DNA of 64,000 bases from Psilocybe cubensis (Eukaryota). Positions 3,453-58,594 of the stretch are shown piece after piece. Under the pieces are notes generated by a model. That model made no database searches, was not told the DNA's origin, and worked only from the letters and a program-made list of their open reading frames with translations. Every line of letters starts with the position of its first letter. The stretch's first letter is position 1. The stretch covers positions 1,736,001 through 1,800,000 of the forward strand of contig CM039009.1 in the NCBI GenBank assembly GCA_017499595.2, in the 5' to 3' direction. A program made the position numbers and the translations under genes.

Positions 3453-4146
3453 TCAAAGGTTTGTGTTTCTTCTCGTTCATTGTTTCGTTCAAACGCGCTT
3501 AACTCAACAGAATGTACATTTCCGTTTTTTTCGGCGCACTACAGCCGTATAACACGATATTTTGAAATTTTCAGAGCCATTTATTGTATATACTATCATC
3601 TTGGAATGCCAGTGCATTTGTATTGTATCTGAGTTTTGTTGATACATGGACTTCAGCACTAATAATATGTTGAGTTATTTTTTTTGGCTTGGTTTGTATC
3701 ACCACCACCTCCATCGACTTATTGTGTACTTTGTATAAAAAATATCCTTTGTCACGACAACTTCGCCAACACTAATTCGCCTTGCACTGCGTTTTTTTGT
3801 AAAAACATGCTTTTTATTCTTAATTTCTTTTTTGTAGGGTAAGGCTAGAGCGGTCTAGTATTGAGGCCTTGGAAGTGTTGTGCAGATAATGGCGTAAGTA
3901 AACGGACCTATAAACACCAGGCAATAAGCGTTTTTTAAAAAATACGAACAAAATTTGTCAACGTCATACAAGAAGATATTTAGAGTTACAACTATTTTAC
4001 CTACAGTGGTTCCACTTGCTTAGAAGTTTCGTGTCATACGCAAAGTTGGAAATATGGATCCGACATTTAACAACGTTTAAAGGTCAATCTATTTGTCTAA
4101 GTACATGTACAACTTGATATTCAACACACCATCAACCTGATCATTG

Positions 4147-5725
4147 TCATATAGATGTGGCCCAACTCCATTTTTCTCTGTTGAAGTCGGGCTGTATCTC
4201 ACATTCTCTCCGCTTCGCAGGGTCGGCTCGCCATATACGAACCACTCCAGCTTCCGCACATACGGCCAAAGAGTTGTAAGACCAATCCACTCCGTATGAG
4301 CTTGATGACCCCCCTCTCAATCTCACAGCATGCGCTGGACTGACATCTAACCGAGTGTCGCGCGCGACACTATAAATGAAAGCATCCCCGTCTCGAGACC
4401 CCATGCCGTGTACTAACCATCGACCGCATGGCGAGACCGACATTTTCGCGTAAAACGAAGTGGTCCCCCCCAAACCATCAAAGGATATCGGGTTCGCACA
4501 TAAATTTAAATCCCGTGCACAGTACACGTATATCTTTGCGTCGATACCAAATCCAAATACAATGCCTTCTGATTCACCGATACCCATCACGAGCGATACG
4601 ATACCCCTAGACCGGTGATAGTTATACAAGCCTGGGTCCAAGTTAGAGCGTAATAGATACTGGCTAGTCGATCTGAAATCCCACAACCGGAGAAAACTAA
4701 CAGCGAAAGTGAGTCGTGCTTCCTAACACATGTTACAACACTCACCCATTAGCAGAACAACTACTTATTACACCATGAGTAACATTGTCATGCGGTACGA
4801 GTCCCGTGATAGTGGGCTCCAGAGAAGCTTTGACTGCCTTGTGTGCATGAGAAATGGTTGCGACGGGTCTGATACCTGTCAATCCCGAAGATAAACGAAC
4901 CGAAGGTTCCACTCGCAAGTCCCACAAAGATATAGTGCCTTCTCTATCTCCAGTGTATACAAGTGATTCGTTCGTGGGATGCCACAAAACACACTTGACA
5001 GGTTCGCAGTGTCCGTGTAACCGATGCGTTATAAACCGCTCTTCGACAGTCACAACAAACCCGCCGGGGTGATAGTCGCCCGTATATTTTGTATGAGTAC
5101 ATGTTCCGACTAACAACGACTTATCATCTCCCTTCCACTTTAGATCGCTGATGTAGGACGAATGTTGCGTGACCAACCGTCCTCTAGGGTCTACACGAAA
5201 TAAACAGAAAAGCGCAAATTCGAGATCAGTGTTAAATTGCAACGATCAAGAATATCGACAACTACCACATTCCGATAAACACTTCCGCCGCGTATCAAGT
5301 ATTTTGACGGCTCCGCTGAAGGTGCCTATCGCAAGCAATGACCCACTACCAGCTTTAGAGACTACACACAAATGCGAGTTATACGCATTGATAAGCAGCG
5401 CAGTATAAGTCCTGTTACATACCATTTGAATACGAGCAAACAGAGCGTCTATCAAACGATCCGCACCGGTAATCGACACCGTTAAAAGTGTCCGAAATAT
5501 TTGAAGACACAAACGATTTTAAAAACGGTAAACGAGAGACTATATCACGGGTAAAAATCAGTACTGGGTCGTATCGGATCCATCCGACACAAAAACTGTA
5601 CCTCTACAACCAGTGCGATACACAGTAGTAGACAAAAAACATCGTTGCATCTGACCATCATGGAGGGTCCGTGTGCTAACTCTTCTTTCAGTATTGACGG
5701 GGATATCTTTATCAGTTCCAGACAT
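4147..5725 (-). CDS. cdt2: Divergent Cdt2/DTL-like WD40 protein (CRL4 substrate receptor paralog)
   Basis: Five exons splice in frame from ATG 5725. Cdt2-type blocks: LPFLKSFVSSNISDTF, CSYSN, LLAIGTFSGAVKILDT, GDREGTISLWDLR, FYAKMSVSPCGRWL, GVVRIWRAD and C-terminal KWSWA. Confidence 0.82.
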
Positions 5726-6109
5726 AAATCAACAATAAATCGATCTCCGGTCTTTTATACAACGAAACGTAGACACACAGAAATCTAATTCACATACATT
5801 ATTATCAAATAGTCGATAGTTACTAGGCCTTGAACAGCCCGAAACAGCCTGATCATCAAAATATGTCAATAAGATTACGATCAGCAATGTCCATGACAAA
5901 TATAAAATGGTCATCACCTTTGACGTTCCATGACAACGTAAGATATTCTGATGAACATAAGAACTTGTCAATAAAAACTAATGTTTAATCGATAAACGCG
6001 GTGTGCTATATCCACTGACTCCCTTCATCGGCCGATCATTCACTAGACGTCACGTCCTGTCTGTGTGGTGATTGTCAAATTGCAAGAAGAGAATGTTCTC
6101 GGACGCAAC

Positions 6110-6600
6110 TCAGTGACTTTTTAACACTTCTGCAATTGGAAGTTGAAAATCTGTAGTTGCAATTGTTAGAATGGGTTATTAATATTAAACACCAGAAACA
6201 TACCGTAGCAAGAGCAGTGTCGATCTGAAAAAAGGTCAGCTTTACGAACTTTTAGTGCAAAACAAAAACTCACATAGTCGGTGGTGATGTAACCACTTCC
6301 CTTAGTGTTCTTCGAGTTGCTGACGCGCAGGTAACTCTGGATGTTGAGGACAGACAAGACTCCATATGGAGACATGACTGTGAAAACGAGGCTGAAAGCA
6401 TCACGGTAGGTGTAGTCGGTACCTGGAATCAAAATATGCAAAGATTGGCATTGGTTTGGCGGGACAAAAACGAGTCCGGAACTTAATGCGGACGGTACCA
6501 GTGAGATCAGAATGCGTAGTAGCTAGAAAAATGTTTAGAGCAATGTCCTATACGGAGACATGTATGATAAATACCTTGAGTTACAACTCCTTGGATCGAG
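6110..6600 (-). pseudogene. Spliced hypothetical gene, probably frameshifted
   Basis: Exon-like ORF (HILIPGTDYTYRDAF...GYITTDY) bounded by GTGAGT/GTATGT donors. Apparent 1-nt frameshift near 6455. Confidence 0.28.
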
Positions 6601-6634
6601 GAATGAATAGAATTTAGAGTTAAGAGTGACACAA

Positions 6635-7475
6635 TACGGGCCATACACCATCCCCACATTCATCTGCGCGCTCATCTCATGGACGCGCGCGCTCAGCTCG
6701 CCCTTGCGCGTCTCCTAAGCCTTCATGAGCGTCTCGAACGCGCTGAGGAGTTGCTTCCACGCGAAATTGTCCCAGGCCCGATCTCCACCTTGTGTGTACG
6801 GATATAATTGCGCGAGTGCGGTTCACCCGACGCAGAGACACCGTACCCGAACGTTGGAAGGGTACAACACCACCGGCGCTACTGTCGTAGCTCTGACCCA
6901 AGCTGACCCCACCATCCATCCTCGTTGCGCTTACCACTGTAACTACTGTTGCTGCTGTGATTGATTAGCTACCCGATGGATGAGTACGAGTCGAACTGCA
7001 TGACGTATCCCGGGTTGTTGTAGCTGCTACTGGACGGGTTTGTAGGCGCTCGGGTTGCCCTGCTACTACTGGCCTTGGAGGTAGCTGTAGCTGCTGCCGC
7101 AGACGTGCGCTGCGAACTGTTGGCCAAAGCTACTTAACGACTGAAAGGGTATGCCACCGCCGCTGCCTGTATGTGATGGGTAGAGCTGTACCCAGAGAGA
7201 TATCCGGCACCGCTGCCTCTCATCGAGATACAACCGCCCATCTACTGCTGCGGTACGTATCCCATGGTCATTTGGGGCTGTTGCTGTTGCTGCTGTTGTG
7301 GGTACTGCTGGTACATGCCCTGTTACTGTTGCTGCGGGGTGACGGGGCTCATCACTGCAGAACCCTAGCCACCATACTGTTGCTGCTGCTGATTTGTGAC
7401 AGGAGGGCTCGAGAGGTCTGGGAATCGCGCACTGTGATTGGATCCGCCATCAGCTATAAAAGGGATGTTGGTCAA
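6635..7475 (-). pseudogene. Decayed copy of a conserved Q/P/S-rich basidiomycete hypothetical gene
   Basis: Translation: (L)TNIPFIADGGSNHSARFPDLSSPP..QQQQQYGG*..GGGIPFQSLSSFGQQF..FDSY..EPHSRNYIRTHKVEI..WDNFAWKQLLSAFETLMKA*ETRK. Many in-frame stops and frameshifts; TTG at the expected start. Confidence 0.65.
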
Positions 7476-9012
7476 AGACTGGTTCGCGCTGTAACCGGAG
7501 TACATCGATAGCGCAGGGAGTTGTAGATATGAAGAGATATGGGTAGTTGGATGAGTCTAAAGGACATGACTGCGTATTAACCGCGAGCCGTAAAAGGTGA
7601 AAACTCACAGTAATAGATAGATTGGGCAGCAGTAACGGATTTTTCGAGTTAGTAATAGCCATGCTATGATAAGGTTTTGATGAGAAATACTATCCAGAGT
7701 TAAATAAGAAAGAAAACAATATGGTTGACAGTGGCAGTGCCAAATGTGAAGCCAGATGGGACACTGGACAATAAAGGTCGAGTTGTAACCAATACAAAAA
7801 AATGTACTTACTAGACTCTCAAAGTCAACGGATAGTTCTTGCGGTTTTGGTTGATGGGTATTCTTGGGCCGGCAACAGTGATAGCAATGCGGTCGACTAG
7901 TAAATGCGTGTCAAATTTGAGTTTCATATGAAAAAGACAATGTATGAATGAACGGCTGAGAATGTATTAGGTGATTCCTGGAGGACACCCCGAACCATTG
8001 ACACCAAGAGACATGCTGCTGTAGCGCGTTCAGTGAAAGCAAAGAGAGGATATGTCAGGTATAACATACATGTTGAAGCCCGGAAGTGCTGGGACAACGA
8101 TTGGAATAGTTCTAGAGCGACGGGACATAGACGGAGGAGACAGGCATTGTCAAGTGCGCCGGGGACATTAACTAGCATCTGGAGCTGTTGGTTGATGAGG
8201 GAGGAAGGGGCGTCGGGGATACAGACCAACAGGATGGTGCTGCTGGTCGTGGAAGGAAGTGGAGAGGAGACGGTTGTATAGGGACGGAGCGGTAGCGGGT
8301 GTGACGACGACCGGCAGTGCGATGCTGCTGGTTGTTATCAATTGGATGGACAGCGACACGACTTGCTGTTCAACATAGTAAAGCTGGGATACATAGAAAT
8401 AGCTTAGAAACTTGAGTCAGAATCCGTGTAACGTACCAGGAGGGCCTCCTCTCTATATGGGCCCCTTACATTGCCTGACCGTCACTTTCTGTGTCATCTC
8501 CGTCGTCGGTGGTCGACCCTAATATGGCCAGCCAGAGTGAGGTTGAGTCCGAACAAGAACAATTTAAAACACGTCACCTGATTGGCATCGTGGATTCGTG
8601 CTACCGGTCATTGAACAGTTTAGCAGCGGTAGGACAACAATTAGCAGTGCTTTATATGACTGGCCTTCCCATGCCACTCAATACTCAACTATTCACCATA
8701 GTCCTGAAAAAGGTTATAAATCTACGATTGAAACAGATATCTTGGTTGTGGGTGTGTATAGCGAAAAAAAAACATGCCATGGTCAATTGAATACTACTAC
8801 ATACAAGACCCGACAACGAACAAGTTTTCTCGTTAATGTAACAATGGTATCAACAATCAGTGTACACTGTAAATACAGCTAACTATCCATCCTTGGGATA
8901 TCTATATAAAAGCCAATGTTAAATAATTAACACCATAAAAATATGAAAAGGGGAATAAATAATTCACTTCATTCTTAATGATATAATACAAACAGAATAT
9001 CTAAAATCAAAC

Positions 9013-10328
9013 TCAATGGGTATATGGGTACATGCCATAGAAGGTCGTCATGTTGCCGTTTGCATCAAAAGAGTGGCACATACACTTGAACCTAAAAAGT
9101 TCATAGTTATGACCAGCGACGCGCTCGGGTGGGCCGACTCTACGAGGTGCAAAGAGGAACTGTGCATAGCGACTCAGTGAATGACACACTCGACCAAAAA
9201 AATAAAACATAAAACATAGAAATAAAAAAAGACACTTTACTGGATTATCAATCTCGAAATAAGGCGTAAAACCCAAATGACATAACAGACAATCGGCCGT
9301 AAACTCGATGTACCACCACATTTCAGTGTCGGTTAGCCCTATAATATCCAACGGGAAGAGCTCTGTATGTATGGAATGTTACCATCAACTTAAAATGTGA
9401 ACATGGACATGTCACATACCTAAAACCATTTGTTTCTCGATGTCAACGGCACGAAGAACGATCTGCATGACATGGCTCTGGCACGGCTTCTTGGAAAACC
9501 CGGAAAATAAGTGACAGACAAAGTCCAGGAATAAGTGGTTAGATGATTGTATCATCGTTATCGCATGACTAAGTTCCGGTACCTCGACCAATGCGTCCGA
9601 GCTCGACAGTATAGTGTAAGCGGAAGAGTTGAAGATACCAGCGCTGACGGCCAGAGCAAGCACCCGATCCACGAGGGAACCGTTAGCATTCGCGGACGTT
9701 TTAGATGCCCATGTCATTACCCAGTCTTGCATCTGAGCATAATACGTAGACCCGTGTATGGCAGAGGATATACGGTCCATCTCGGCATAGTCGGTGATCA
9801 AACCAGACATGAGTTCAGATATAACACCATGGTATATATTTTCACTGAATAGTTCAATCGTCAGTTCATAAGAAAACAGAGTACATGGATAAGACAGACT
9901 TCATAGTACGAACGTCCATAGCACATCGCGCTTCAAACAGGTCAAGGGATTGATATATACTATCAACTATCGGTGACCTGCCCAAACGACGTGGTAATAA
10001 CACCATCAATGCAAGACCGAATATATGGCGCTGGTCGTGGTCGAGTTCAAGATCCCAACTTTCTGTCAAAGTCTCGAGGTCGATGGTGTCTACAGTCCAG
10101 AAGGAGCTCGACATTCGCTTATATACATCCCAAGTCTAGAATTTTAACAGAGATTTAGATGGCGAATTGAATAAATAAAACAAAAATAAAAAAGGAGAAA
10201 AGAGAGGAGAAGAAGCAATACAGAAGAAAAAAAAAAAAAAAAAGAAAAAAAAAAAAAAAAACCGGAGACTGTAAGACCTTTTCGGAACTCGAGGACAGTA
10301 ATGTAAAGTGAGTGGGTCTGTCGATCAT
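9013..10328 (-). CDS. Ribonucleotide reductase small subunit (R2)-like protein, predicted catalytically dead
   Basis: Spliced product aligns colinearly to R2: WDVYKRMSSSFWTVDTIDL, FEARC, ENIY, DRVLALAVSAGIF, RAVDIEKQMV, YIEFTADCLL..LG...NP. Ancestral ATG at 10940 is separated by a MITE; the second Met at 10328 remains. Confidence 0.82.
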
Positions 10329-10329
10329 A

Positions 10330-10921
10330 AGATTGGGCTCATCAGGAACCAGCACCCCCTTAGGTAAGCAAAAGTTGGCTTACCTCCGAACCTTTTCAAC
10401 CCTTCTGCACTCACACTATTCTACATTTTTGAACCACAGATATGTAGGTTATGCTTCTTTGAACACATCTGTGGTTTTTTTTTTCAAAAAAATTTTGATC
10501 TCAAGAAGTTATAAAGATTTTAATTTTTTTCCTTTTTTTTTAGTCTAACACGTCAGAAATGGTGTTTTCTCGAGTTTGGGAGATTTTCGAAAATTTGACA
10601 ATGTTCTTTTGGCCGCTTATATAATGGTACACGTGACCACACGTGACAATAAGTCACGCCTAAGTAATACCTCTCAGACTCATTATGGACTTCCAGAGAC
10701 TACAATTTGACCTCTGAGGTGTAATTCTATTATTGTGGGCATAAAGGCTAGTAGTAAGGATTGTATATGCACATTTATGAATTTTTTTTTTTTAAACTTT
10801 TTGTCTGAAACCATTTTCCGTCAACATAACTTTTGATTTTTTTTTCGAGCTGGATTTTGGCCGCTCTTGGCGCCAAGCCCATTGATTACGTAAGGGTGCT
10901 GGTTTCTGATGAGCCCAATCT
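10330..10921. mobile_element. MITE (592 bp) with 28-bp TIRs and TA target-site duplication
   Basis: Left TIR AGATTGGGCTCATCAGGAACCAGCACCC; right TIR reverse complement AGATTGGGCTCATCAGAAACCAGCACCC (27/28 match). TA at 10328-10329 and 10922-10923. AT-rich non-coding interior. Confidence 0.9.
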
Positions 10922-12447
10922 TAGACTTGGTGAGCGCCATGGCTTAATGTTATGTATAATCTATGAAAAGTAAACATACAACTTGAAGGAGAGTTGCTCT
11001 TATACTGTACCGACCAGAGCCTAGACCAAGATATTTGCACGAACTGTTAGTTACATATAAAATAAAACGAGATTTAACCAGGATGACGCGAGCACTATTT
11101 ATAATCGTGCTTAGTAATAACAATAAACCATCAAAAAATGCTGACCGACTCACCGTTGCGTAGGTGACATAGATCATTACAGTTACCCTCGTAATATCAT
11201 AGTGGAACTCATCATATAGCTGTTAAAGTGATCGGCAAACGTGATCATCATAAGAAATGGTTGTCTCTGACGCACCAATGAAAGATAACAAATAAACATT
11301 GCGTTGCGCTGATAGTTGTTGATGTGGATACTGTTGTTAGCGGAAGAGGTAATGGCTTGGTTCGGAGGGAGACAAGATAGAAGGATATAAACGGCGTAAC
11401 ATTGATTGATTACTGCCACGGAAATGGCCAGCACAGTAACCAGTCAGACTTCTGGTAATGAGAATGGACGATGGTATGATATTGATGTAAAACGACCAAC
11501 GTACTTTGATAAAGTATCATTTTGTCATCAATATTGTTCGACTGGAATGTCGTAAAAGAAGGATGGACCATAATACGCGTTGTTACACACTAGTTGATAT
11601 TTAGAAGACTCGAGGCGCGGTGCCGATGATATATCATATCGATATGTAAACCGAGTTGGTTGCGCATTGTATTTCATGCAGGGACTATTGGACAACGTGA
11701 CGAAGAACGCGACTATCAGCATCGAAACGGATGATCGGGATGACATAAGTGTTGACCAAAACGAAGCGGTACGGCGCGGGTACCCATATGACACGTGACT
11801 CTGCGGCACCAGTAACATAACGTAATCAGATGACACGACCTACCATTGTTGACTCTTGACACAACCTTGCTCAGACCACGCAGGTTCGACCACGACCGAC
11901 GAACGAAATGAAGCATAATGAAGGAGGCAGGAGTTAGAGTACAAGAAAGGGAGACCCATGTAGGAGACCCCAATGGTGCGTCATATAGTTCCAATTTAGA
12001 TTTTATAGGTTCAAACTTGCAAACTCAACAAGTAGATATATCCACCGCTTCCACTGAGGCCTCGAGCTGGGAAAAGGACAGATTTGCTGACGATGTCCAC
12101 GTCACAATCCACTCCGTTATGTCAAGAGCGGAGCTGGGGTGATTCTCCTCATCACCATCACTCTCCTCACTGTCCGCCCTCCACACCAACCGTCGACACA
12201 GAGCCTTCAACCGAGCGGCTGTCAAGATACACCGTAGACACGAAGGTATCTCTGACGCGCGCGCGCGGCTGTGTGCGTTCGTGTTTGTGTTGCTCACGGG
12301 CGACACGACCTGGCACCGGCGGAGGATGCGCACGGAGGGCGTTGTCCTAACTTGCATCTGCCTCTCTACCTTTACGCCATCTCCCTCATGTTCTACTCTC
12401 CTACAGGGCGAGAAAAGCGAACCTGGCCATTTCACATCAACTGACAC

Positions 12448-13313
12448 GAGGAGCAGTGATGCGGCTGCTGCTCATCCGTTCGCAAAGGCGACAGAATGAG
12501 GTTAATCCGCCTTCCTCTACACTGTTTTCACCGGCACGACGAGCACAGTTGGTGCTGCTACTCGAACCGTAACCTGTCACAAACACACCACCCACACAAC
12601 TTTGACCGCCTCCCCTTACAGCCGTGAACCTTTGGCTCCTCCTACAACCTCCTTATGACGTGCCCAACTACATGACGAGCAGCGTGATTATTGCTGCTTG
12701 TCTGATGTATGACTGTAACTCATCCCGCTGCACCATTCCATGTCTACTTGGCGAGAAGCATTGGTCCTGTTCTCATGGAGCATACCCTACATAATCCTCC
12801 CTCCGCCTTCGCGACCCACCACAACCGAAAAGGGATGACGACCCAACGAGCAGCAGCCATAATGTTGCTCGCATTACTGCCTTTGCCACCCACACTTATC
12901 CGCCTATCGACTCGACCGGCAGCAGCCGCAAAACCCATGCGCTCTTCAATTCACTGCGGTGAACAGCATTATGGTTGCTCGTTGTCCATCCGCCTCCACT
13001 ACCCACTCCGTTTGGCGCGACGACTATCAACACTATTGCTTGTCCTACCGTCTCCTCCACATTCCCGTTGACAAGATGAGCAGCGCGAGGGCTCCATGTT
13101 GCGCCGGTTCCACCACCTCATACCCACTGACAAGACAAACAGCGTTCAGGCTACTACTCATCCCACTACCAGCGCAGTGCATCGACTGACTTGATGAGCA
13201 GCAATTCCATTGCAGCTTGTCTTATCGCCTCCTCCCAACCACACAACGAGCAGCACTAGGGCTTCTGCTCGTCTAACTATCTCCATCACATTTACACGGC
13301 AATGCTGCTTGTC
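12448..13313. repeat. Array of imperfect palindromes, consensus GACGAGCAGC-N9-GCTGCTCGTC
   Basis: 29-bp copies at 12448, 12538, 12674, 12845, 13193 and 13245. More degenerate copies at 12750, 12958 and 13075; half-site near 13304. Confidence 0.75.
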
Positions 13314-13974
13314 CTAAAAAAATCTACACTATACTGATACGGTATACGGCTCATGCTTATTCATAGTCTCCGCCACTCACTGTCGAAAACATTTTACACT
13401 ATCTCTTTACTCTGGTGTCTTTGCACTAGTGTTGCCCCCAATTAACGCTACTGACATGACCGTTGTGACCCATCACCATCACCAGCAAATATCACTTACC
13501 GGTACCGAAGTTTCCTTTACTAAGTCTTCGCAATAATTTTATAAGTACCAGAATACTGTTTATCTCTTGTGTAATATATGTATTGAAGTAGAAAAAAGAC
13601 ATTCATAAAAGTCAATATTCAGTCATTTAATGAAACCGTGTAAGATATCAAGATACAGACTATAAACTAAATATAAACAAAGCCTCGTACATACCATGCG
13701 TGAGCACTGGCTCACCTTACCAGTTAGACCGAGAGAGATCCACAGTACCGGTCGTGACGTCAGTGACGTGCTTGTCGGTGACACTGGAATAGTATCGGAC
13801 TGTATCATAGAAACAATTATATCGTCTTGTAACATAAAACAAACAATTCCAACGCATCCTGACACATTCAAACTCACTCCATCCGACTCACAAACGGTAG
13901 CAAAGAAACATTCGGTCAGTGGTTCATGTCTAACACCATGTACATCCAATTGTAACTAAATAGTCTTTTGCCAA

Positions 13975-15296
13975 TCATCTATTCGAGTATCTAGCTATAG
14001 AAGCCTGTAACACGGACAAAGGTTCTGGGTTAATGTACAAAACATCCCAAAATAACGAACTGTCTTTATCGAAGTCGGGGTACAGCTCATCGTCATCACC
14101 AGAGTCAACGCAAATTTTGTTAGTCTGCTCCCATCCGCCAGAGTAAACAGACTTGGCCCATTTTATCATCCCAAAATTGACCGACACCAAGTTTCTCCGG
14201 CTCTCTGCTGCTTTGGTAATATGTATACCCTGAACCTTAAGATGATCGGGTCCGGAACCAACTGGAATAATTACTGGTGTCGTGATAGTCCAGTCGTTAA
14301 ACTGCAGGAGACGCGCCTCTCGAAATAGAGGAGGGTCTAGTGTCAGCATCAACGACGCTTCCTATCCGGACACCAAGTATTTCAACAAAGAATCAGTACA
14401 TACAAGAAAAATTAATTATCGGAAAACAACTCACCAATGCATCAAGCTTCGGACTCCGTACAGTTAGAGATTTGATGTTTGGGAAGGCATTCCCCAGACG
14501 GTAAAGCGATGTCCCGATACGCGAGTACGATTCCACAAACTGAAGTGTAATACACAGTATAGACAACGAAGTGTTAGGAGTCCCGGTAGGTGCCATTTCA
14601 TTGAGGAAGAACGTGAAGCTGTCGTCATCCATCGCTTCTGTTAAACATATTTTGACGAGCACGCTCTTTATACTAATGAATCTGATAACTTTGATATCTC
14701 CGTGAAGGTTGAACTTCTTCAATTTCGGGAAATTACAGAAGGTTATTGGACTATCGACGACGCGAAGCCTTTTATCGTCCAGGCGGATAGCGTCGGCGTA
14801 AGTAGACTGGATGGGATGTACTGAATATCTGAGCATATATTTCAGAAAAGGTGATAGTTGAGTTCGCATGATCATCGTCAATGATTCAACGTTCGCGAGA
14901 AATGGTACCGCTCGACGCAGTAACGCGTGTGTGATGCTCACGTCGTTGTTGGTCGATACAGTGTATTGAAGCTCCTTGGTGTAAGTTCCATAGCTTTCGG
15001 TCGACTCTATGATCGTCTTGAAGAAACGTTTCGCACTAGAGTCGTACACAGAGACGTCGCGATATAACTGCCTGGAAACAACATCGTGCAAAGCCCATCC
15101 AGTGCATAGAAGAGCGTGCTGGTCTCTCCGAGGTAGATAGCGTGTTATCTCGTCCAAAAGCTCGTTCGCCAGACAAGGGAGCGATGTCTTATTGAACCTA
15201 AACGGGACTAAAACCAAAAGGGTAACAAGAATAACATTTAGCCGAAATCTATACCAAGGGTATACGAAAATCGAAGATCACACCTGATAGAGTCAT
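13975..15296 (-). CDS. F-box protein with LRR-like C-terminal region
   Basis: MTLS|VPFRFNKTSLPCLANELLDEITRYLPRRDQHALLCTGWALHDVVSRQLYRDV is F-box-like. LxxLxL repeats follow (FPKLKKFNL, FPNIKSLTV). Two GT-AG introns. Confidence 0.75.
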
Positions 15297-15820
15297 AGGG
15301 AGAACCTTGGGACCAGAACGACGTGGTATAGACAAACGTATTTATCCAACGCATTAACTAAACTTTTTTTTTTGTCTGATCTCAAGGTAAGGTAAAAAAA
15401 TATTAATACATCCACACATAAAACAACGACCATGATTGGATATAACTATATGTAATACAGTGTACGTCATCATATCAACAAAACGATAACCCGATCACAA
15501 TTAACCTTGTGCTGACATATACCCGTTACTCTATCAAACTGGCTACAGTCATAAGCTATTATTAGAAGATGGAAGACAAATGAAGCCCATCACAACTGCG
15601 TTTCGATCTACGTGATCAGAGAAAACCGAACGTCATGTCTGCACAGTACGATTCAGGATGCTATTGAAGGGACAGATTAGTCGTACAGTATACGACTCAA
15701 AGTATCAACACGAAAGATAATGAATGTTCCATCAATACAAGTAAGGTATAAAAACCAAACTTCTACGGTGATCAATTTCAGAGCAACACACTTACTCGAT
15801 CACTGTAATAGCCATACACA

Positions 15821-17112
15821 ATGTTCAATGCGATAGAAGACAGCCTCGCAAAAGAGCAGAGAAACTCAGGTAACTTGACGAGTTTCGAAGTATACCCGTT
15901 CCCTTCAAAGCTAGTGGAGATCGCATAGTAAGTGCAAGCTTATAATCTTAATCCACCGAAGCAAAAGGAGATGAACATGTTTAGCCCTCTTGACACCCGA
16001 GGGTTCGTAATCCCGCCGACATTATTAAAAGTGTATTCCGGTAACCATATGTTCTGTATGCCTAAATGTTTCCACGGAGTGGACGCAAATATTGTCGTCG
16101 CGAGGAACGCATACTACAACGGACACGACGGGGTTCACTTGGTCTGTGGAAACTTCAAACATCATTCCCAATGCGCTTTTCAAGGTAAAGTTCAAACCAT
16201 TATTTTTCCTACTATCAATAAACCCATGTTATAGTCAACATCACACGACTACTCAGAGAAAGTACTGACATGGTGTTCACTCAATACGCATTGACACCAA
16301 CTGTTCCGATGAGTGAGTTTTGTAATGTACTCAACAATCTAAGCATGATACCATACTCACCACACAAACCAGAAGTACCCCCTTCATCACCAGTACATTC
16401 AAGCATCGTGTCGCTCCCACCACTAGAAGAAGCGGAACAATCCGTACAATTACATTCCGATTACAATCCAAATGAAGAGGGACCGAACGAAGACAACACA
16501 CCGCGACCGACGTACACCATGGCTCTGGAGCGAACAAATATCCCGGACACCTGCTTCGAGGACCGCCTTAAGTACGACCATCGCCCAGCATCGATTTGCG
16601 ATATCCCACGTGAAACTGCAACGACACCATCACTTCTCGATCGCATCGAAACGGACGACGCTTTCAGCACGAGGACATGCAGGAGCACATCTCCGTCGCT
16701 ATGTCAAGTAAAGACTTCCGAACAAAAAGACAAATCAGAACATGGACGAGACATATGCGTTGTCACCGGACCTGGTTTACCAACAATGGTTATTGGGGCG
16801 AAGAACAACATTGGAACCAAGACAGTCAAACTCGATGTCGACCAGCCTAAACAGGAACGTGCTGGTACGTATTCTATACAGATAAACCACTTAGACAAGT
16901 TAACGAAATGCTCACAGACAATGTCGACGAATATGACTATCCGCTTACGGCCAGACGCGATGGTATTCCATCCATCATTTCTTGCATAGACCCGTGTACT
17001 CACGAATATAGTCACGATCTATTTCTCTCTTCGATTATAAACGCGAGCGTCATCTGTTGATAGAAATACCACCACCGTATATAGATTAGGCCCACAGATA
17101 GAGAGGGTATAG
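15821..17112 (+). CDS. Hypothetical protein with GRF-like zinc finger and disordered C-terminus (3' end uncertain)
   Basis: TATAAA at ~15747 and ATG at 15821. Exon 2 has PKCFHG...HLVCGNFKHHSQCAF (CxH...C...C). Long P/S/T/E-rich exon 3. Confidence 0.55.
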
Positions 17113-19345
17113 ACTGAACGGATTAAGGGAGAATGGGACGTGACCATAGAATTATACACCATTGTGTATAACACGCTTTAAGTCTGGTTTGAACCGTGTA
17201 GAATTATTTATACGAATTCGTACCTATCACAACGTCAGATGTCAAGATCGAAAGAAATATTACACCGGTAATATAACAAAAATTCTACTTTATTTTAATG
17301 TTGGTTAAGCTTTTATACTATAACGGGTTCTGTCTTCTCACCACTATATGGATAGATACTTCATTTAAATCAGAGATATTTTGAGACAACGAAGTTAATG
17401 TGATTTCTTTCACCAAGGTTACAGCGGTAGTTCAAAGGAATAAATATCAATTTCCATATTGTCAAAAGCATCGCAAATACATACAGACGATTTTCACTAA
17501 TAACTACAACTGTAGATGGCAAGCAATACTTTTTGTGGATATACAAAGCCAATCCACTACAGAGCCTACGAGCTGTTGTGAAGTGAATTGAGACCGGAGA
17601 AAGTGAAGAGTGTGTGTGCACACATTCCCTCTGTTGTGTGGTCATAGAAGAAACGGCGACGACAGATGGACCCACGTCGAGTACCGTACATTGATAACGA
17701 CAGAAGCTGGGACAGATGATACCAAGAGTGCAACACAAACACCCTCCACGTCAATACCCAGGATGGAGATAGCAAAGGAGATGGTAGACAACATAACATA
17801 CAACGTCATTCACGTTATTGTGGACTGACAACAGGTAGTACCAGAGGAGGAGAAGGGGTGATGTCCTGTTTATCGTTGTAGGAGGAGAATATAGCAGCGG
17901 ATGATTGTGACAAGAAAGGGCACGAGCAATAGGATAGAGAGAAAAACACGTATTCTGTAGAGTGCTGTACGTGTCACGTAGAATGTAGTGGTGGTGGGTA
18001 CAGAGCGGCAGGGACATATGACACAACATGAAAACGCGAAGCCCTGTGTATGTCGTCTAGACATATTGTTGGGACGGAGAGCGATACAGATCAGAGATCA
18101 GTGCTCTACATGTTGTTCGCGATGGAGTGCATGACACATATATCCCTATGCCAATGTTGGAAATGGGAGAAGCGGCGACGGCGGGTGGAGTAACATGCAA
18201 CGCCGTGTGCGTCGTTGCGAGTGGAGAGGGGTGTATGTGTGGTTTGTGATGAATATTCCCTCCGTGTTGTTATGAGCAAGTGGGTAGGTGATGGAAAGGA
18301 CATAGCACAAACACTCTCCTATCAATATAAAGGACGGAGAGTACAGCGGGAGCGGCAAAGAACATGAGATACAGTACTGCGTGCACTATTGTAGGTAGAG
18401 AGTGGAGCAGTATGGAGAGTGACGCGAAATGCCTTGTGTATTGTTATGGAGAGATGCAATTGTAGCGACGAGAAGAACAACACACAACACCATATGCGTA
18501 TGTTGTGAGACGACAGAGGACATGTCTTGTGTGTCAGGGTGGTCAGAGGGAGCAGTACCGATGGTATCGGGCACCCAATACATCACACCATGTGAATGGG
18601 AGAGGGAGAGAGGTAAAACAATACGTTCGATAGAATGTGACCGAGATGGTTGTCCGATGTCGTACTGGATAGAAACAGCTACAGATATAACGGCCGCATA
18701 GAGCGCTGTACCATGCATGTCACAGTGAACGGGAAGGGGGGTCTGGTTACCGCGGTGAGTATATTACAGGGACGGAAAGCAGAATGGTCTAAGTTGATGA
18801 TGTGCGCGTTGCGACGGATGAAAACATATAGGACGGAGTGGAACAACACGTAATGTCGTGTATGTGTTGGCGAGTATGCTGAAGTTGCAACAGAACGCGG
18901 TGGTAGAAGGGACCAAGAGTGATCGATCGGTTTAGATACCAGGCACGCAGCGGAGTGGATTGGTTAAGTTGTGCACATCAGTTTTAGCGGGTAGAGGAGA
19001 GTGTCGGTGCGCTTTGAGTACCATCATGGTATCGGATTATACGGTTACCAGCTTCCGAACCAGTGGAATCTATGCTGTCTTACGGACATAAACCATGGTG
19101 ACACTGGTCGGGACGGAAATACCAACGACTTCTTCAACCAAACATGAACTGGCTTTCTCAGCTCAATTCTCTTTTTAATTTATAGAACGACATGGAATAA
19201 GGTTATCCGACGTTAGCCGACGTAAGAAGCATGCTTACTACAACGATGGTGCCTATCTGAGTTGAACTGAGATTGAAAATGAGCGCGTTTTGGCTGGTAA
19301 TTCAATACCGCCAACTGCCGAGTCGATCTTCACTGACACACATAC

Positions 19346-42513: not shown

Positions 42514-42613
42514 NNNNNNNNNNNNNNNNNNNNNNNNNNNNNNNNNNNNNNNNNNNNNNNNNNNNNNNNNNNNNNNNNNNNNNNNNNNNNNNNNNNNNNN
42601 NNNNNNNNNNNNN
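42514..42613. other. Assembly gap (100 N)
   Basis: Run of exactly 100 N. Confidence 1.
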
Positions 42614-54683: not shown

Positions 54684-57600
54684 CTACCTCCCAAAACCCT
54701 TGAAAACCGCATCATCTGAGTCTTCATCCACAACAATAGGCGCAGCTTTCGATCGTCCTTTCCCAGCAGCTCCCCGCGTCGCTGCCGCGCGCTTGGTGCC
54801 TCCTGCAGGGGCCTTGGCTTTCCCTTTGACTTTGGGCTTGAGCTCAGACTGAGTCTGCAGCGTCTGGTCCACATCAAAATCGCTATCGGGTTCCTCAGCT
54901 TGCGTGTATCTTGACGAGCGCGCCCGAGAGCTCTTCGGCGGCACGTCCAACACGTTCTCGTCGACTTCCTGAATGTCGTCATCCGAGTCTAAAAATAGCG
55001 CGTTCTTTTTCTTGGCAGCCACCTTGGCCTTGCTGCTACTGCTTGTTGGTTTCTTCGACCTGCTAGTGCTAGCCACGCTCTCAGCAGTCGACGGAGGCTT
55101 GCGAGAGGTCCGCCGGATATTGACAGTCCCAGTTTCCTGAGTTTCCTCGTCTCCAAAGTCATACATTGATTGACTCAATGCTGTTGTTGCTGTGGGCATC
55201 GGCTGGGAATCCATTTGGGAACCCATATCCATGTCGTTGTTGTAAGATTGTGATTCTGTGTATCCCTCCATATTTTTGGATTTCTTCACTTTCCAGTAAG
55301 CTATGAGGATAAACGATTTAGCTTTATAACTAAGAAACCCAGGCTAATTCAACAAACTCACATGGATCTACAGTCGGTTCTTTGTCCTGAGTAGCGAAAA
55401 GCTCGATCTTTTCTCGAGGTGCCCTGGGAGCCTTCTAATGAAGTAGAAAAACACGTTAGCCCACTTAGCGATGTCGTAAAAAACGAAAGCAAAGATCTAA
55501 CCTGCTTGAACTTTTTAAAGTTCGGCCTCCCATCCCACGCAGGATTCCAGCTCTTCTGGCGCTGCGCCTCAATCGCCGCCTCGTCCTTCTTGTACACTTC
55601 CAGATCTACGATAATCATGAAATTTCCGCGCACGTCCGAATCATCTCCAAACTCCTTCAGCAGAGCCCACTCCTCCTCCGGGTCCCTGCGGTCACTGTCC
55701 AACTTGGGTTTGACAATCTGCAGATTGTTGAAATCTTTGTCGAATTGGTCTAGGTTTTCCGCCTTCTTCCCGCGCTTCCTGCTGGCGATGGCTGTGAGGA
55801 ATGGCTGGTCGGTGTCCACCTTTGACGAAGACGCCTGTTTGCACTTGGCCTTCTCAGCTTCCTTCTCCTGCTCTTTCGCTTTATTTTTCGCCTCGCGAGA
55901 ATCGAAAGCTTCAAATGTCGTAGATATAGGCTTCTTCGACGGCCCAGCTGGAGGCTCAGACTCCGCCGTCCGCTGAACAGCATTCACATTCTCTACCGCC
56001 CTCCTTTTCGCAGCCGACGCGCCTGTCGTCGAACCCACGCTCGCATTCGACACCGCACGCGATCGCGATCGTACCATTCCCGCTTCCTCCATACCCGCAC
56101 CGCTCTCCTCCATAGAGTCCAGTCGAGCACGCTTCGCACCCCTCGGCCCCCTCTCACCTGGCGCCGTTTGTCCACCCTGAGTATCTTCCTCATCCTCCTC
56201 CCTCAAAATCTCCATCGTCGACACCCCCATCGTACGCCCCGCGGCATTCCGTCTGCTCCCCTGCGTCTCGCCCGCCTGCGTTTGCGTCTGCGACTGAGTC
56301 CCGTTCACAATCGCCTGCACATCCATATTCGGGTCTGCGAGCGACCGCTTAAAGCGCTCCAGCTCCTCGGGGTCTTTCGCCGTCGATTCGAAGAGAGGTC
56401 TGAATTTTTTGAGAGGCGGCTCTTCGGGCTGCTGTGTCGGTGGGATGGCTGGCCATGCTGAGTCGGTCTGCGCAGTAGCCGATGCAGCTGCTGCAGCAGC
56501 GGCGGCGGCTTCTGCCCTCTTTCGCATCCTCTCGTGGCGCTTCGCCTCTGCATCCTAGTGTATACAAACAGATTTAGACAACAATCTGCCATGCTATATG
56601 TAAAAACAAACCTGATCTGTGTCAAGAAGCCCAGCGAAACCAAGCTTCCTCTTCTTCGAGGAAGCACCAATGTCACTATCTGGTGTAAAAGAATCATCCA
56701 AGTCTATCGGAATCCTTGGAATCTAACACAACAACCCACAATTAGCAATATCTTCGATAGGCAGAGCCACAAGAGCGAGAATAAAACACCAACTTTACGG
56801 GGCGGAGACGGGGCCTCTAGTTCAGCTGTCGTCTCACGGGACATTCCCAACCGCCCGCGACTGGCAAAAGGTTTCACCTCAGTCGCAGGCGGTTCAACAG
56901 GCTCAGGGGGTAGCGGCGAGGATACAGGCTTCAGCCGTTTAGATGAACGCTCAACAGGTTCAGGCGAGAAGGCTGCGACCGGCGCAAGCCTCTTACCCGG
57001 ACGCTCGGAGTTCTCGTCTACGACTGCATCACTTCGACGCTTCCTATTGGGTAGCTCATCAGGCTGCATGGTAGGTTCCTCTGGTATCGAATTTGGAACG
57101 TTATCGGGCAGCGGTGAGGAGCGAGGAGCGGCTGAAATGAGAGGATCGTTATTAGTTAGAGTGTTTATATAGATTATTTTTGAAGGGGGCTCACAATCCT
57201 CCGTAGGCACTTCCAAAACAGAGGTATTGATCTCAATGACAGCTTGGACAATCTTTGAGGGGGCGAATATGTCTGTTGAATAGCTAGGTAGTACAAAGCC
57301 ATCAAATAAAATACAAGATAGTCAGCAATCGATACAAAGGGAGCATCAAGCCACAAAAAAGATTCAAAGCACCTTCTTGCCTCTGAAACGAACTCCTTCC
57401 ACGTCGAGGCCCCAACCGCCGTCTGCAAAGAGTCTATATCACCAACAACAATTGTCTTCTTCCCCTCTTTCGCCCGACTCCTCGCCAAAACTCTTGGGAG
57501 TTTCTCCACGCCATCAGAGACTTTGAACGTTTCATAGCTCCCCCCACCGCGATCAATGGCCTCTCGAATCTCGGCGTCCAACTCGGTGGCCTTCTCTTGC

Positions 57601-58594
57601 ATACATATAAAACGAAAGGGCTTGAGAAGATTCACCCTCTCTTCGTTAGGTTCCCACACGTCGAATGTCTTCTGTTTTGGTAACAGAGAAGGAGAAAACG
57701 CAGGGCGGTACTTCGTTTCTACTGGCAACGCCAAGCGTTCTTCAAGAGAAGTGCCGGTCGCATTTTCGTCTTCCTTGTCTAGCGCACCCAGTCGAAGGAT
57801 TTCGCTGAGCCATTCGGGCTTGACGATTCGTGTCATGTTGAGCAAGGAGGCGATCATCGTCAAGTTGGCGACGTAATGGGAAGCCAGATGGTGTGTGACG
57901 TTTTCGTGCATCTTTTGCGATAGCTTTATGCCTGTTTAGAGAGTCAGGGTACACTAGCAGGTACTGATATGGATGCTACGAACCTAACGAAGCACAACCG
58001 TTAAGAGTCGCACTTGAAACCGAAGATTTACCCCGGGATGGAGGTTGGAAGATACATATGGGTCTCCATTCCACTCTGTGGAGAAAAATGTCAACCACGA
58101 CATGATTTTAGCTAAGCTTGAGTACAGAGCATGCGCACCTCACAAGTATCCCAGTAATAAGGGCAATAGAATCTCCAGATTCCAAAACCACCTTCTCGTT
58201 CTGCCCAGCCCCAATGAAGTCTTCTCTTCGCGTGATGGAGTACGTCTTGTCTTTGGCATTAGTGTTAAGTATCTCGAGTGTTGGAATAACGGTATGATCT
58301 CCCTAGAACTTAATGAGCAACTACAGAAACCAGCAGAAAAAGGACTCACAACATGGTCGACGGTATGCTCTCCAACGATGAAATCGCAATGATGACCGGA
58401 TATCTTCTTGCTATTCACTATAAGGTTCTGTCCCTTCCTCCCAAGGGAGTATGTTTTTGAGGGCTTCAGCAACTTTTGCTCTGCAGAGAAACCGTCAAGG
58501 ATGCCATTGAGACAACAGGACAGGGAAATCACTCACTTTCAAACGCCAGTTCACCTGGAACATCTGCGTCGAAGGGGCCAATTATTACCCACAT
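54684..58594 (-). CDS. NBS1: Nibrin/Nbs1 (MRN complex subunit)
   Basis: MWVIIGPFD start, FHA domain (YSLGRK..KKISGHH), BRCT-like region (THHL..IVKPEWL), Mre11-binding PNFKKFK and an acidic C-terminus ending DDAVFKGFGR. Confidence 0.88.

Follow-up and report, generated by a model that had tools for sequence, protein, structure and literature searches.

Two diverged extra copies of conserved S-phase genes lie close together on the minus strand of a 64,000-nucleotide stretch of the Psilocybe cubensis genome (assembly GCA_017499595.2, contig CM039009.1, positions 1,736,001 to 1,800,000 of the forward strand). This whole stretch is called the window here, and position 1 is its first letter. One gene encodes a WD40 protein of the Cdt2/DTL family and the other a protein with the fold of the R2 subunit of ribonucleotide reductase (RNR) that has lost its metal site. 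We read them as two separate, lineage-restricted and fast-evolving copies whose nearness need not have a functional meaning, and we give this reading a probability of about 0.55. An earlier prediction made from the letters of the stretch (the original prediction) had joined the two into a possible module for the control of deoxynucleotide (dNTP) levels. As we see it, both paralogs are real and diverged, and their closeness is unexplained. They are referred to below as the Cdt2-like gene and the R2-like gene.

4147..5725, minus strand: Cdt2/DTL-family WD40 gene, a diverged extra paralog, from sequence reading and tests of splice combinations.
9013..10940, minus strand: gene of the R2 fold whose product lacks a metal site ('dead R2'), from PF00268 on three open reading frames (ORFs) and from protein P0001, which is 98-99% identical.

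The Cdt2-like gene consists of five exons (5725-5602, 5539-5423, 5361-5266, 5190-4746 and 4696-4147, the last including the stop codon) separated by introns of 62, 61, 75 and 49 nt. Its product of 444 amino acids (aa) has no internal stop, which agrees with the intact five-exon gene of the original prediction. The donor of exon 3 is ambiguous (5266, 5269 and 5281 are all in frame), and 5266 is preferred because the protein then aligns without gaps with canonical Cdt2. The last intron was read directly from the sequence:

4745-4697, minus strand: last intron of the Cdt2-like gene, 49 nt, GTGAGT...TAG.

The peptide across its junction (SCSANG joined to FLRLWD) is uninterrupted in the relative P0002. 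An intron of 23 nt joining the last two Cdt2-like ORFs was considered and rejected, as it is too short and out of frame; that of 49 nt fits, and P0002 confirms it.

Membership in the Cdt2 family emerges from the last exon and from the canonical proteins that it leads to. Exon 4 contains a WD40 repeat (PF00400, 33.5 bits with a cut-off of 27), and when it is searched alone, its matches to solved structures are all generic WD40 proteins (403 sequences at E<=0.01). Three solved relatives match the last exon, and the top two are human DTL/Cdt2 (E 1.6e-4 and 3.1e-4). With this exon, 1.84 billion representatives were scanned in full by HMMER, and 117 proteins reached E<=1e-3. The closest is P0002 (69% identical, 273 aa), a partial protein that starts in the middle of the propeller. 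The other relatives are at most about 40% identical, and many of them are about 520 aa long and matched at the extreme C-terminus. P0004, a member of this group, matches DTL among solved proteins across nearly the whole propeller (E 1.2e-34; next best 1.2e-14). In a search with P0005 from Mycena haematopus, several proteins among the 120 of 175 matches listed are named 'cell division cycle protein cdt2' or 'Denticleless'. The group of about 520 aa thus corresponds to the canonical Agaricomycete Cdt2, which places the window gene in the same family. Compared with 15 canonical Agaricomycete Cdt2 proteins, the full model shows 30-36% identity. Judged by these similarities, the window WD40 gene is a member of the Cdt2/DTL (DCAF2) family. 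None of 746 candidates among public proteins of 320-2000 aa, a collection that includes P. cubensis proteins, matches the last exon, and the P. cubensis protein set may lack the gene altogether or contain only a short fragment of it.

P. cubensis also has a canonical Cdt2. Among the listed matches are P0159 of P. cubensis (532 aa, 'Denticleless protein-like protein A') and P0158 of Psilocybe cyanescens (528 aa), and the Cdt2-like model is 35% identical to P0159 across 440 aa (E 1e-75). No canonical Cdt2 lies within the window, where tblastn with P0159 returns only the diverged gene. These comparisons support the Cdt2-like gene as an extra paralog, neither an orthologue nor the sole cdt2 of the genome. 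The original prediction had named it a paralog, a claim borne out by the existence of canonical P0159 outside the window. A maximum likelihood tree of 25 rows was built. Besides the window model and P0002 it contains 23 canonical sequences, chosen from the 120 listed so as to cover Agaricales and, as outer rows, Boletales, Polyporales and Hymenochaetales. The window copy and P0002 form a clade (support 100/100), and the stem leading to it is 3.45 changes per site long, compared with a median end branch of 0.39. This pair is nested in a ten-row set with support of 95/96 that contains Agrocybe, Crepidotus, Pholiota, Flammula, Galerina and Psilocybe. The tree places the duplication within the Strophariaceae/Hymenogastraceae Cdt2 clade, a placement on which long-branch effects may act and in which the sister group is uncertain.

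The Cdt2-like copy retains the consensus in 78 of the 101 columns that are at least 95% conserved across the 23 canonical Cdt2 sequences, and in only 7 of 106 poorly conserved columns. Likewise, the window copy and P0002 are identical in 60/69 conserved columns versus 35/64 variable ones. By this pattern of substitution the Cdt2-like copy is still constrained. Both of its WDxR strings (SLWDLR and RLWDFR) and its pre-propeller segment FLKSFVSS align with canonical Cdt2. DCAFs use these motifs and this segment to dock on DDB1. The copy lacks the N-terminal tail of about 100 residues that carries the conserved RTN motif and K/R runs in canonical Cdt2, and it also lacks two K/R-rich loops found there. 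P0002 checks these losses only where the two proteins overlap, and the N-terminal region lies outside this partial protein. Several positions that are invariant in canonical Cdt2 hold derived residues common to the window copy and P0002.

The predicted product is a folded seven-blade WD40 protein with the structural core of Cdt2. It most likely still docks on Ddb1, because the core, the pre-propeller segment and both WDxR motifs are retained, and it would then either serve CRL4 as a substrate receptor whose targets have changed or compete for Ddb1. With the tail and the K/R loops gone and invariant positions changed, its recruitment and its substrates should differ from those of canonical Cdt2. 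In metazoan Cdt2, recruitment to PCNA on DNA requires two elements that lie beyond the propeller, a PIP box and a basic region that binds DNA (PMC8871960). By analogy, the loss of basic segments in the Cdt2-like copy suggests altered recruitment.

The R2-like gene also has five exons on the minus strand, with intact splice sites and frames. Exon 1 is split by a transposable element described below (10940-10922 and 10327-10278, extended to 10263 in the public model) and is followed by 10135-9900, 9844-9420, 9362-9241 and 9159-9013, the last with the stop codon at 9015-9013. Without the element the product is 332 aa long. The R2 family PF00268 was found on three minus-strand ORFs, with 54.1 bits on exon 3 and 25.2 and 23.4 bits on the other two (cut-off 33.6). 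A word-based search with exon 3 against proteins of 255-2000 aa retained one of 486 candidates, a single 90% cluster represented by P0001. This 321-aa protein is named 'Ribonucleoside-diphosphate reductase subunit M2 [Psilocybe cubensis]', carries PF00268 and is 99% identical to exon 3. The 98-99% identity of the R2-like gene to it places the window in P. cubensis or a very close relative. Its sequence confirms the exon model, including a 55-nt intron that takes out a deceptive in-frame look-alike of the iron-binding helix. Most of the first intron (142 nt) is taken up by a long T-rich tract at 10160-10270 of the minus strand with several runs of 15-20 T, where reads seemed to be cut. Two C-termini are candidates, one from the public model and one from an unspliced reading, and alignments to solved structures stop at residue 293.

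Among solved proteins the best of 17 R2 chains at E<=1e-3 is mouse R2 (E 3.3e-34, 121.7 bits), with yeast Rnr2 at E 2.4e-30 (109.0 bits) and yeast Rnr4 at E 1.8e-21 (79.8 bits). Residues were compared in the phmmer alignment of the R2-like protein to mouse R2, with chain positions counted. We take mouse positions 139, 170, 173, 233, 267 and 270 to be the six metal ligands and Y177 to be the radical tyrosine.

Mouse R2 D139: R in the R2-like protein.
Mouse R2 E170: E in the R2-like protein, the sole ligand kept.
Mouse R2 H173: Y in the R2-like protein.
Mouse R2 Y177: I in the R2-like protein.
Mouse R2 E233: A in the R2-like protein.
Mouse R2 E267: N in the R2-like protein.
Mouse R2 H270: F in the R2-like protein.

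The protein thus lacks five of the six metal ligands as well as the radical tyrosine, and because of these losses it is unable, by established RNR chemistry, to generate the tyrosyl radical. Every eukaryote needs a working R2, and so a radical-dead gene must be an extra copy. In this respect the 'dead' R2 of the original prediction is confirmed, and the predicted locus had ended at 10940, exactly where the ATG lies. The public name 'subunit M2' of P0001 overstates its function given these losses; the label is based on similarity. Any action of such a protein would have to be through binding, perhaps by partnering or poisoning the canonical R2 dimer, in the manner of Rnr4 with Rnr2. In exon 3 (9771-9806, minus strand) the radical-tyrosine helix reads LITDYAEMDR. 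The TD pair, the aromatic residue and the basic residue four positions on faintly resemble a PIP-degron as found in Cdt2 substrates; the segment is a core helix, so the likeness is probably meaningless.

The R2-like gene is of eukaryotic type with spliceosomal introns. Atlas look-alikes of P0001 are generic R2 clusters, mostly viral or bacterial, which offer no lead on relatives and give no sign of horizontal transfer. Pattern searches of metagenome contigs gave 75 matches for P0002 and 17 for P0001, none of which was confirmed by tblastn. In the searches made here, neither the Cdt2-like nor the R2-like copy was found outside a narrow lineage.

After codon 6, a miniature inverted-repeat transposable element (MITE) breaks up exon 1 of the R2-like gene:

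10328..10923, no strand: MITE in exon 1 of the R2-like gene, a 592-bp element at 10330-10921 with terminal inverted repeat (TIR) arms at 10328-10357 and 10894-10923.

The inverted repeats are 30 nt long and 97% complementary, with TA at both ends, and the TIR pattern has two matches in the window, both at this element, where 0 are expected. In sequencing run X9 a contig fuses 10327 to 10922 and skips 594 bp, which is the empty site in another strain. Depth in the same run over 10175-10975 is 92-139 compared with about 24 alongside, a four- to six-fold excess that indicates a multi-copy sequence. The element is short and non-coding, carries TIRs and a TA duplication, occurs in many copies and is absent from this site in another strain, and no Pfam-matching ORF was found inside it (ORF 10312-10545 was scanned). 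We take its class to be the TA-flanked, Tc1/mariner-like Stowaway type. Its removal restores the N-terminus of P0001 exactly, while the frame read through it meets a stop at codon 40. A peptide, EPNL, upstream of exon 1 had been considered as a conserved R2 N-terminus and was rejected, since it lies in the inverted repeat of the MITE. A strain-polymorphic element in exon 1 implies that the R2-like gene is dispensable or weakly constrained today; inactivation is not thereby proved.

The minus strand from 4147 to 10940 holds three co-oriented genes, as a DUF4360-family gene lies between the other two:

6095..8112, minus strand: DUF4360-family gene between the Cdt2-like and R2-like genes, from PF14273 and spliced-looking contigs.

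The distance from the ATG of the Cdt2-like gene (5725) to the stop of the R2-like gene (9013) is 3,287 bp, with the R2-like gene upstream on the same strand, and the spacing of about 3.3 kb and the shared strand of the original prediction are both confirmed. The co-location holds with one amendment: the two genes are close and co-oriented, but the gene in between means that they are not adjacent. PF14273 (DUF4360) was matched by ORF 6169-6522 (E 1.5e-5). Runs X14 and X15, guessed to be RNA, have spliced-looking contigs on 6095-8112 only, at 80-95% likeness, and none on the Cdt2-like or R2-like gene, which carries no information on the expression of these two. The runs listed as containing 4000-11000 include no RNA run. 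As the contigs are just 80-95% alike, they derive from a paralog or from another strain or species. The DUF4360-family gene appears to contain a CAG/CTG-rich segment of about 1 kb (6628-7460); one RNA-like contig jumps from 6595 to 7623, and another of high depth covers 6628-7460.

The stretch is real DNA, as 9 of the 15 listed runs, from three studies, contain at least half of the sampled words. Contigs of run X9, which is DNA, differ from the window by four letters over 3500-6224, which covers the Cdt2-like gene, and by nine letters over 7595-10214, which covers the R2-like gene. Run X10 (share 0.07) has only short, identical, scattered contigs. Pfam was scanned with 72 of the 114 ORFs of at least 100 aa (overlapping or antisense ones were removed by eye) and with 89 of the 300 ORFs of 60-99 aa. 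Elsewhere in the window these scans found a CAP59-type mannosyltransferase, an aspartate/ornithine carbamoyltransferase, a carboxylesterase, an F-box, an HMG box and a Duc1 domain, and tblastn found no further copy of the Cdt2-like or R2-like gene within the 64 kb. The possibility that the region is a 'nursery' of diverged housekeeping paralogs arose from two sub-threshold hits on the plus strand, Exportin-1-like (Xpo1, E 0.008 at 2681-2878) and the Ski2 beta-barrel (E 0.002 at 17385-17588). It was rejected as chance, as both weak hits stayed isolated, with no supporting neighbours in 64 further plus-strand ORFs around them. Long ORFs with no Pfam match at E<=1e-3 occur in 12000-18800 and 55361-57935, for example 14396-15277 (294 aa), 16222-16986 (255 aa) and 55361-56554 (398 aa). 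An assembly gap of 100 N lies at 42514-42613. The G+C content is 0.40-0.48 in the left third of the window and up to 0.55 in the right part.

Several points weigh against reading the two genes as separate copies. If they are unrelated, chance is unlikely to have brought two diverged paralogs from the Cdt2-Spd1-RNR axis to within 5 kb of each other, and the Pfam scans of the window revealed no other diverged housekeeping paralog. The independence of the two copies is itself an assumption. The narrow distribution of the R2-like copy is weakly founded, because its search was word-based and restricted in length, and the predicted docking of the Cdt2-like protein on Ddb1 was inferred from motif retention alone. 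The MITE need not kill the R2-like gene either, as two bypass routes give long products: an in-frame splice from GTAATC at 10889 to CCTAAG at 10359 removes 531 nt and yields 353 aa, and a start at ATG 10328 yields 326 aa.

The alternative that survives best, which we nevertheless consider unlikely, is a functional module for dNTP and replication control, in which the truncated Cdt2 would redirect or titrate CRL4-Ddb1, the dead R2 would serve as a partner or decoy of RNR, and the shared pathway would have kept the genes together. Both are extra copies from one known axis, in which CRL4-Cdt2 of Schizosaccharomyces pombe, according to the passages of PMC11763709 that treat it, degrades the RNR inhibitor Spd1 and Cdt1. 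They lie 3.29 kb apart on the same strand, their reading frames have stayed intact through long divergence, the Cdt2-like copy is under constraint, and yeast Rnr4 offers a precedent for a dead R2 partner in the sections of PMC9431586 and PMC4245953 devoted to it. Such a module would not lead one to expect an unrelated gene between its two members, or a strain-polymorphic MITE in exon 1 of one of them. Furthermore, the extreme C-terminus of R2 is required for R1 binding, as stated in part of PMC4245953, and neither predicted C-terminus of the R2-like protein has an obvious R1-binding tail when judged by eye. The MCB box ACGCGT is not enriched (13 found versus 12.8 expected) and does not occur upstream of the Cdt2-like copy. 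In this analysis, position is all that ties the two copies to each other.

It is a little less probable again that one or both genes are decaying duplicates on the way to becoming pseudogenes, with no present function. The lost catalytic residues of the R2-like copy, its interruption by a MITE with an early stop on read-through, the very long branch of the Cdt2-like copy and its absence from the public candidates of at least 320 aa (0/746) would all follow from decay. Open frames of 444 and 332 codons with every splice site intact would not be expected under neutral decay at such divergence. The column-specific constraint in the Cdt2-like copy and P0002 and the existence of a MITE-free allele point in the same direction, away from decay.

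A more specific proposal, which we regard as doubtful, is a lineage-specific dNTP regulator in which the tail-less Cdt2 paralog, free of the chromatin/PCNA mode, would set the level of the dead R2 together with Ddb1-Cul4, and the dead R2 would heterodimerise with the canonical R2 and silence or stabilise it. If true, it would be a replacement, by a folded protein, for the RNR inhibitors of the Spd1/Sml1 type, born by duplication of a receptor and of an enzyme target. Least probable is linkage by descent through one segmental duplication of a stretch in which canonical cdt2 and R2 were already close, followed by divergence of both under relaxed constraint. Such an origin would account for the closeness of the two copies, and for a divergence that is similarly extreme in both, with no shared function. 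It suits a Cdt2 duplication within one family-level clade, but is a poor fit to a DUF4360-family gene whose relative in other runs is still 80-95% alike in nucleotides, as one old block duplication would not leave such a pattern.

Reading the two genes as separate extra copies leaves a second, truncated DCAF2-type receptor in a fungus and an independently arisen R2 pseudoenzyme. A search of open-access papers and bioRxiv found no paper on either protein. To our knowledge, RNR control is almost unstudied in mushroom-forming fungi. If the copies cooperate, they would represent a new way to regulate an essential enzyme, by duplicating a ubiquitin-ligase receptor together with a subunit of the target pathway that turned into a pseudoenzyme, and the paradigms of Rnr4 and Spd1 would then reach into the mushroom-forming fungi. 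Even with no coupling, the locus is a clean case of a fungus with a second DCAF2-type receptor. It also corrects the public name of P0001 and brings to light a Cdt2-like copy that is seemingly missing from the public P. cubensis proteins of at least 320 aa.

Among known systems, the Cdt2-like protein is closest to canonical Cdt2/DTL (S. pombe Cdt2, human DTL and P0159), with whose propeller it aligns from end to end. Fungal Cdt2 stops directly after the last blade, and so does the window copy. Canonical Cdt2 proteins share on average 42% identity with one another, whereas the window copy reaches only 30-36% to them, and its stem branch is about ten times the typical length. Of the near-invariant canonical columns examined, 25 are altered or absent in the window copy, several of these changes being common to P0002, and the copy coexists with a canonical one in P. 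cubensis.

The R2-like protein invites comparison with several systems. Spd1, Sml1 and Hug1 are functional analogues at most: should the dead R2 poison RNR subunits or hold on to them, its role would be inhibitor-like, on the axis that CRL4-Cdt2 controls in S. pombe (PMC11763709, PMC4245953). Those three are short and disordered and have no relation to the R2 fold, and inhibition by the R2-like protein is purely hypothetical. Apicomplexan R2_e2 is likewise a eukaryotic paralog of R2, and it does not conserve the residue that harbours the radical (PMC3824934). It is an old clade found across a whole phylum, while the R2-like copy is one 90% cluster from P. cubensis. Rnr22 of Cryptococcus neoformans is, in the account given in part of PMC9431586, a non-essential extra basidiomycete R2 that keeps the iron-binding residues and can replace Rnr21. 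The R2-like gene is likewise an extra R2 gene in a basidiomycete, but unlike Rnr22 its product cannot be catalytic. Rnr4 of Saccharomyces cerevisiae is described, in the parts of PMC9431586 and PMC4245953 concerned with it, as lacking conserved iron-binding residues and forming an Rnr2-Rnr4 heterodimer. Both proteins have an R2 fold with no full metal site or radical, and the R2-like protein could act via protein contacts only; a heterodimer with a catalytic R2 would be its putative form of action. Rnr4 is essential, whereas the R2-like gene carries a polymorphic MITE. The R2-like protein is not an Rnr4 orthologue, as it scores 79.8 bits against Rnr4 compared with 121.7 against mouse R2 and 109.0 against Rnr2. 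Its loss of ligands is independent of that in Rnr4 and has gone further, to five of the six.

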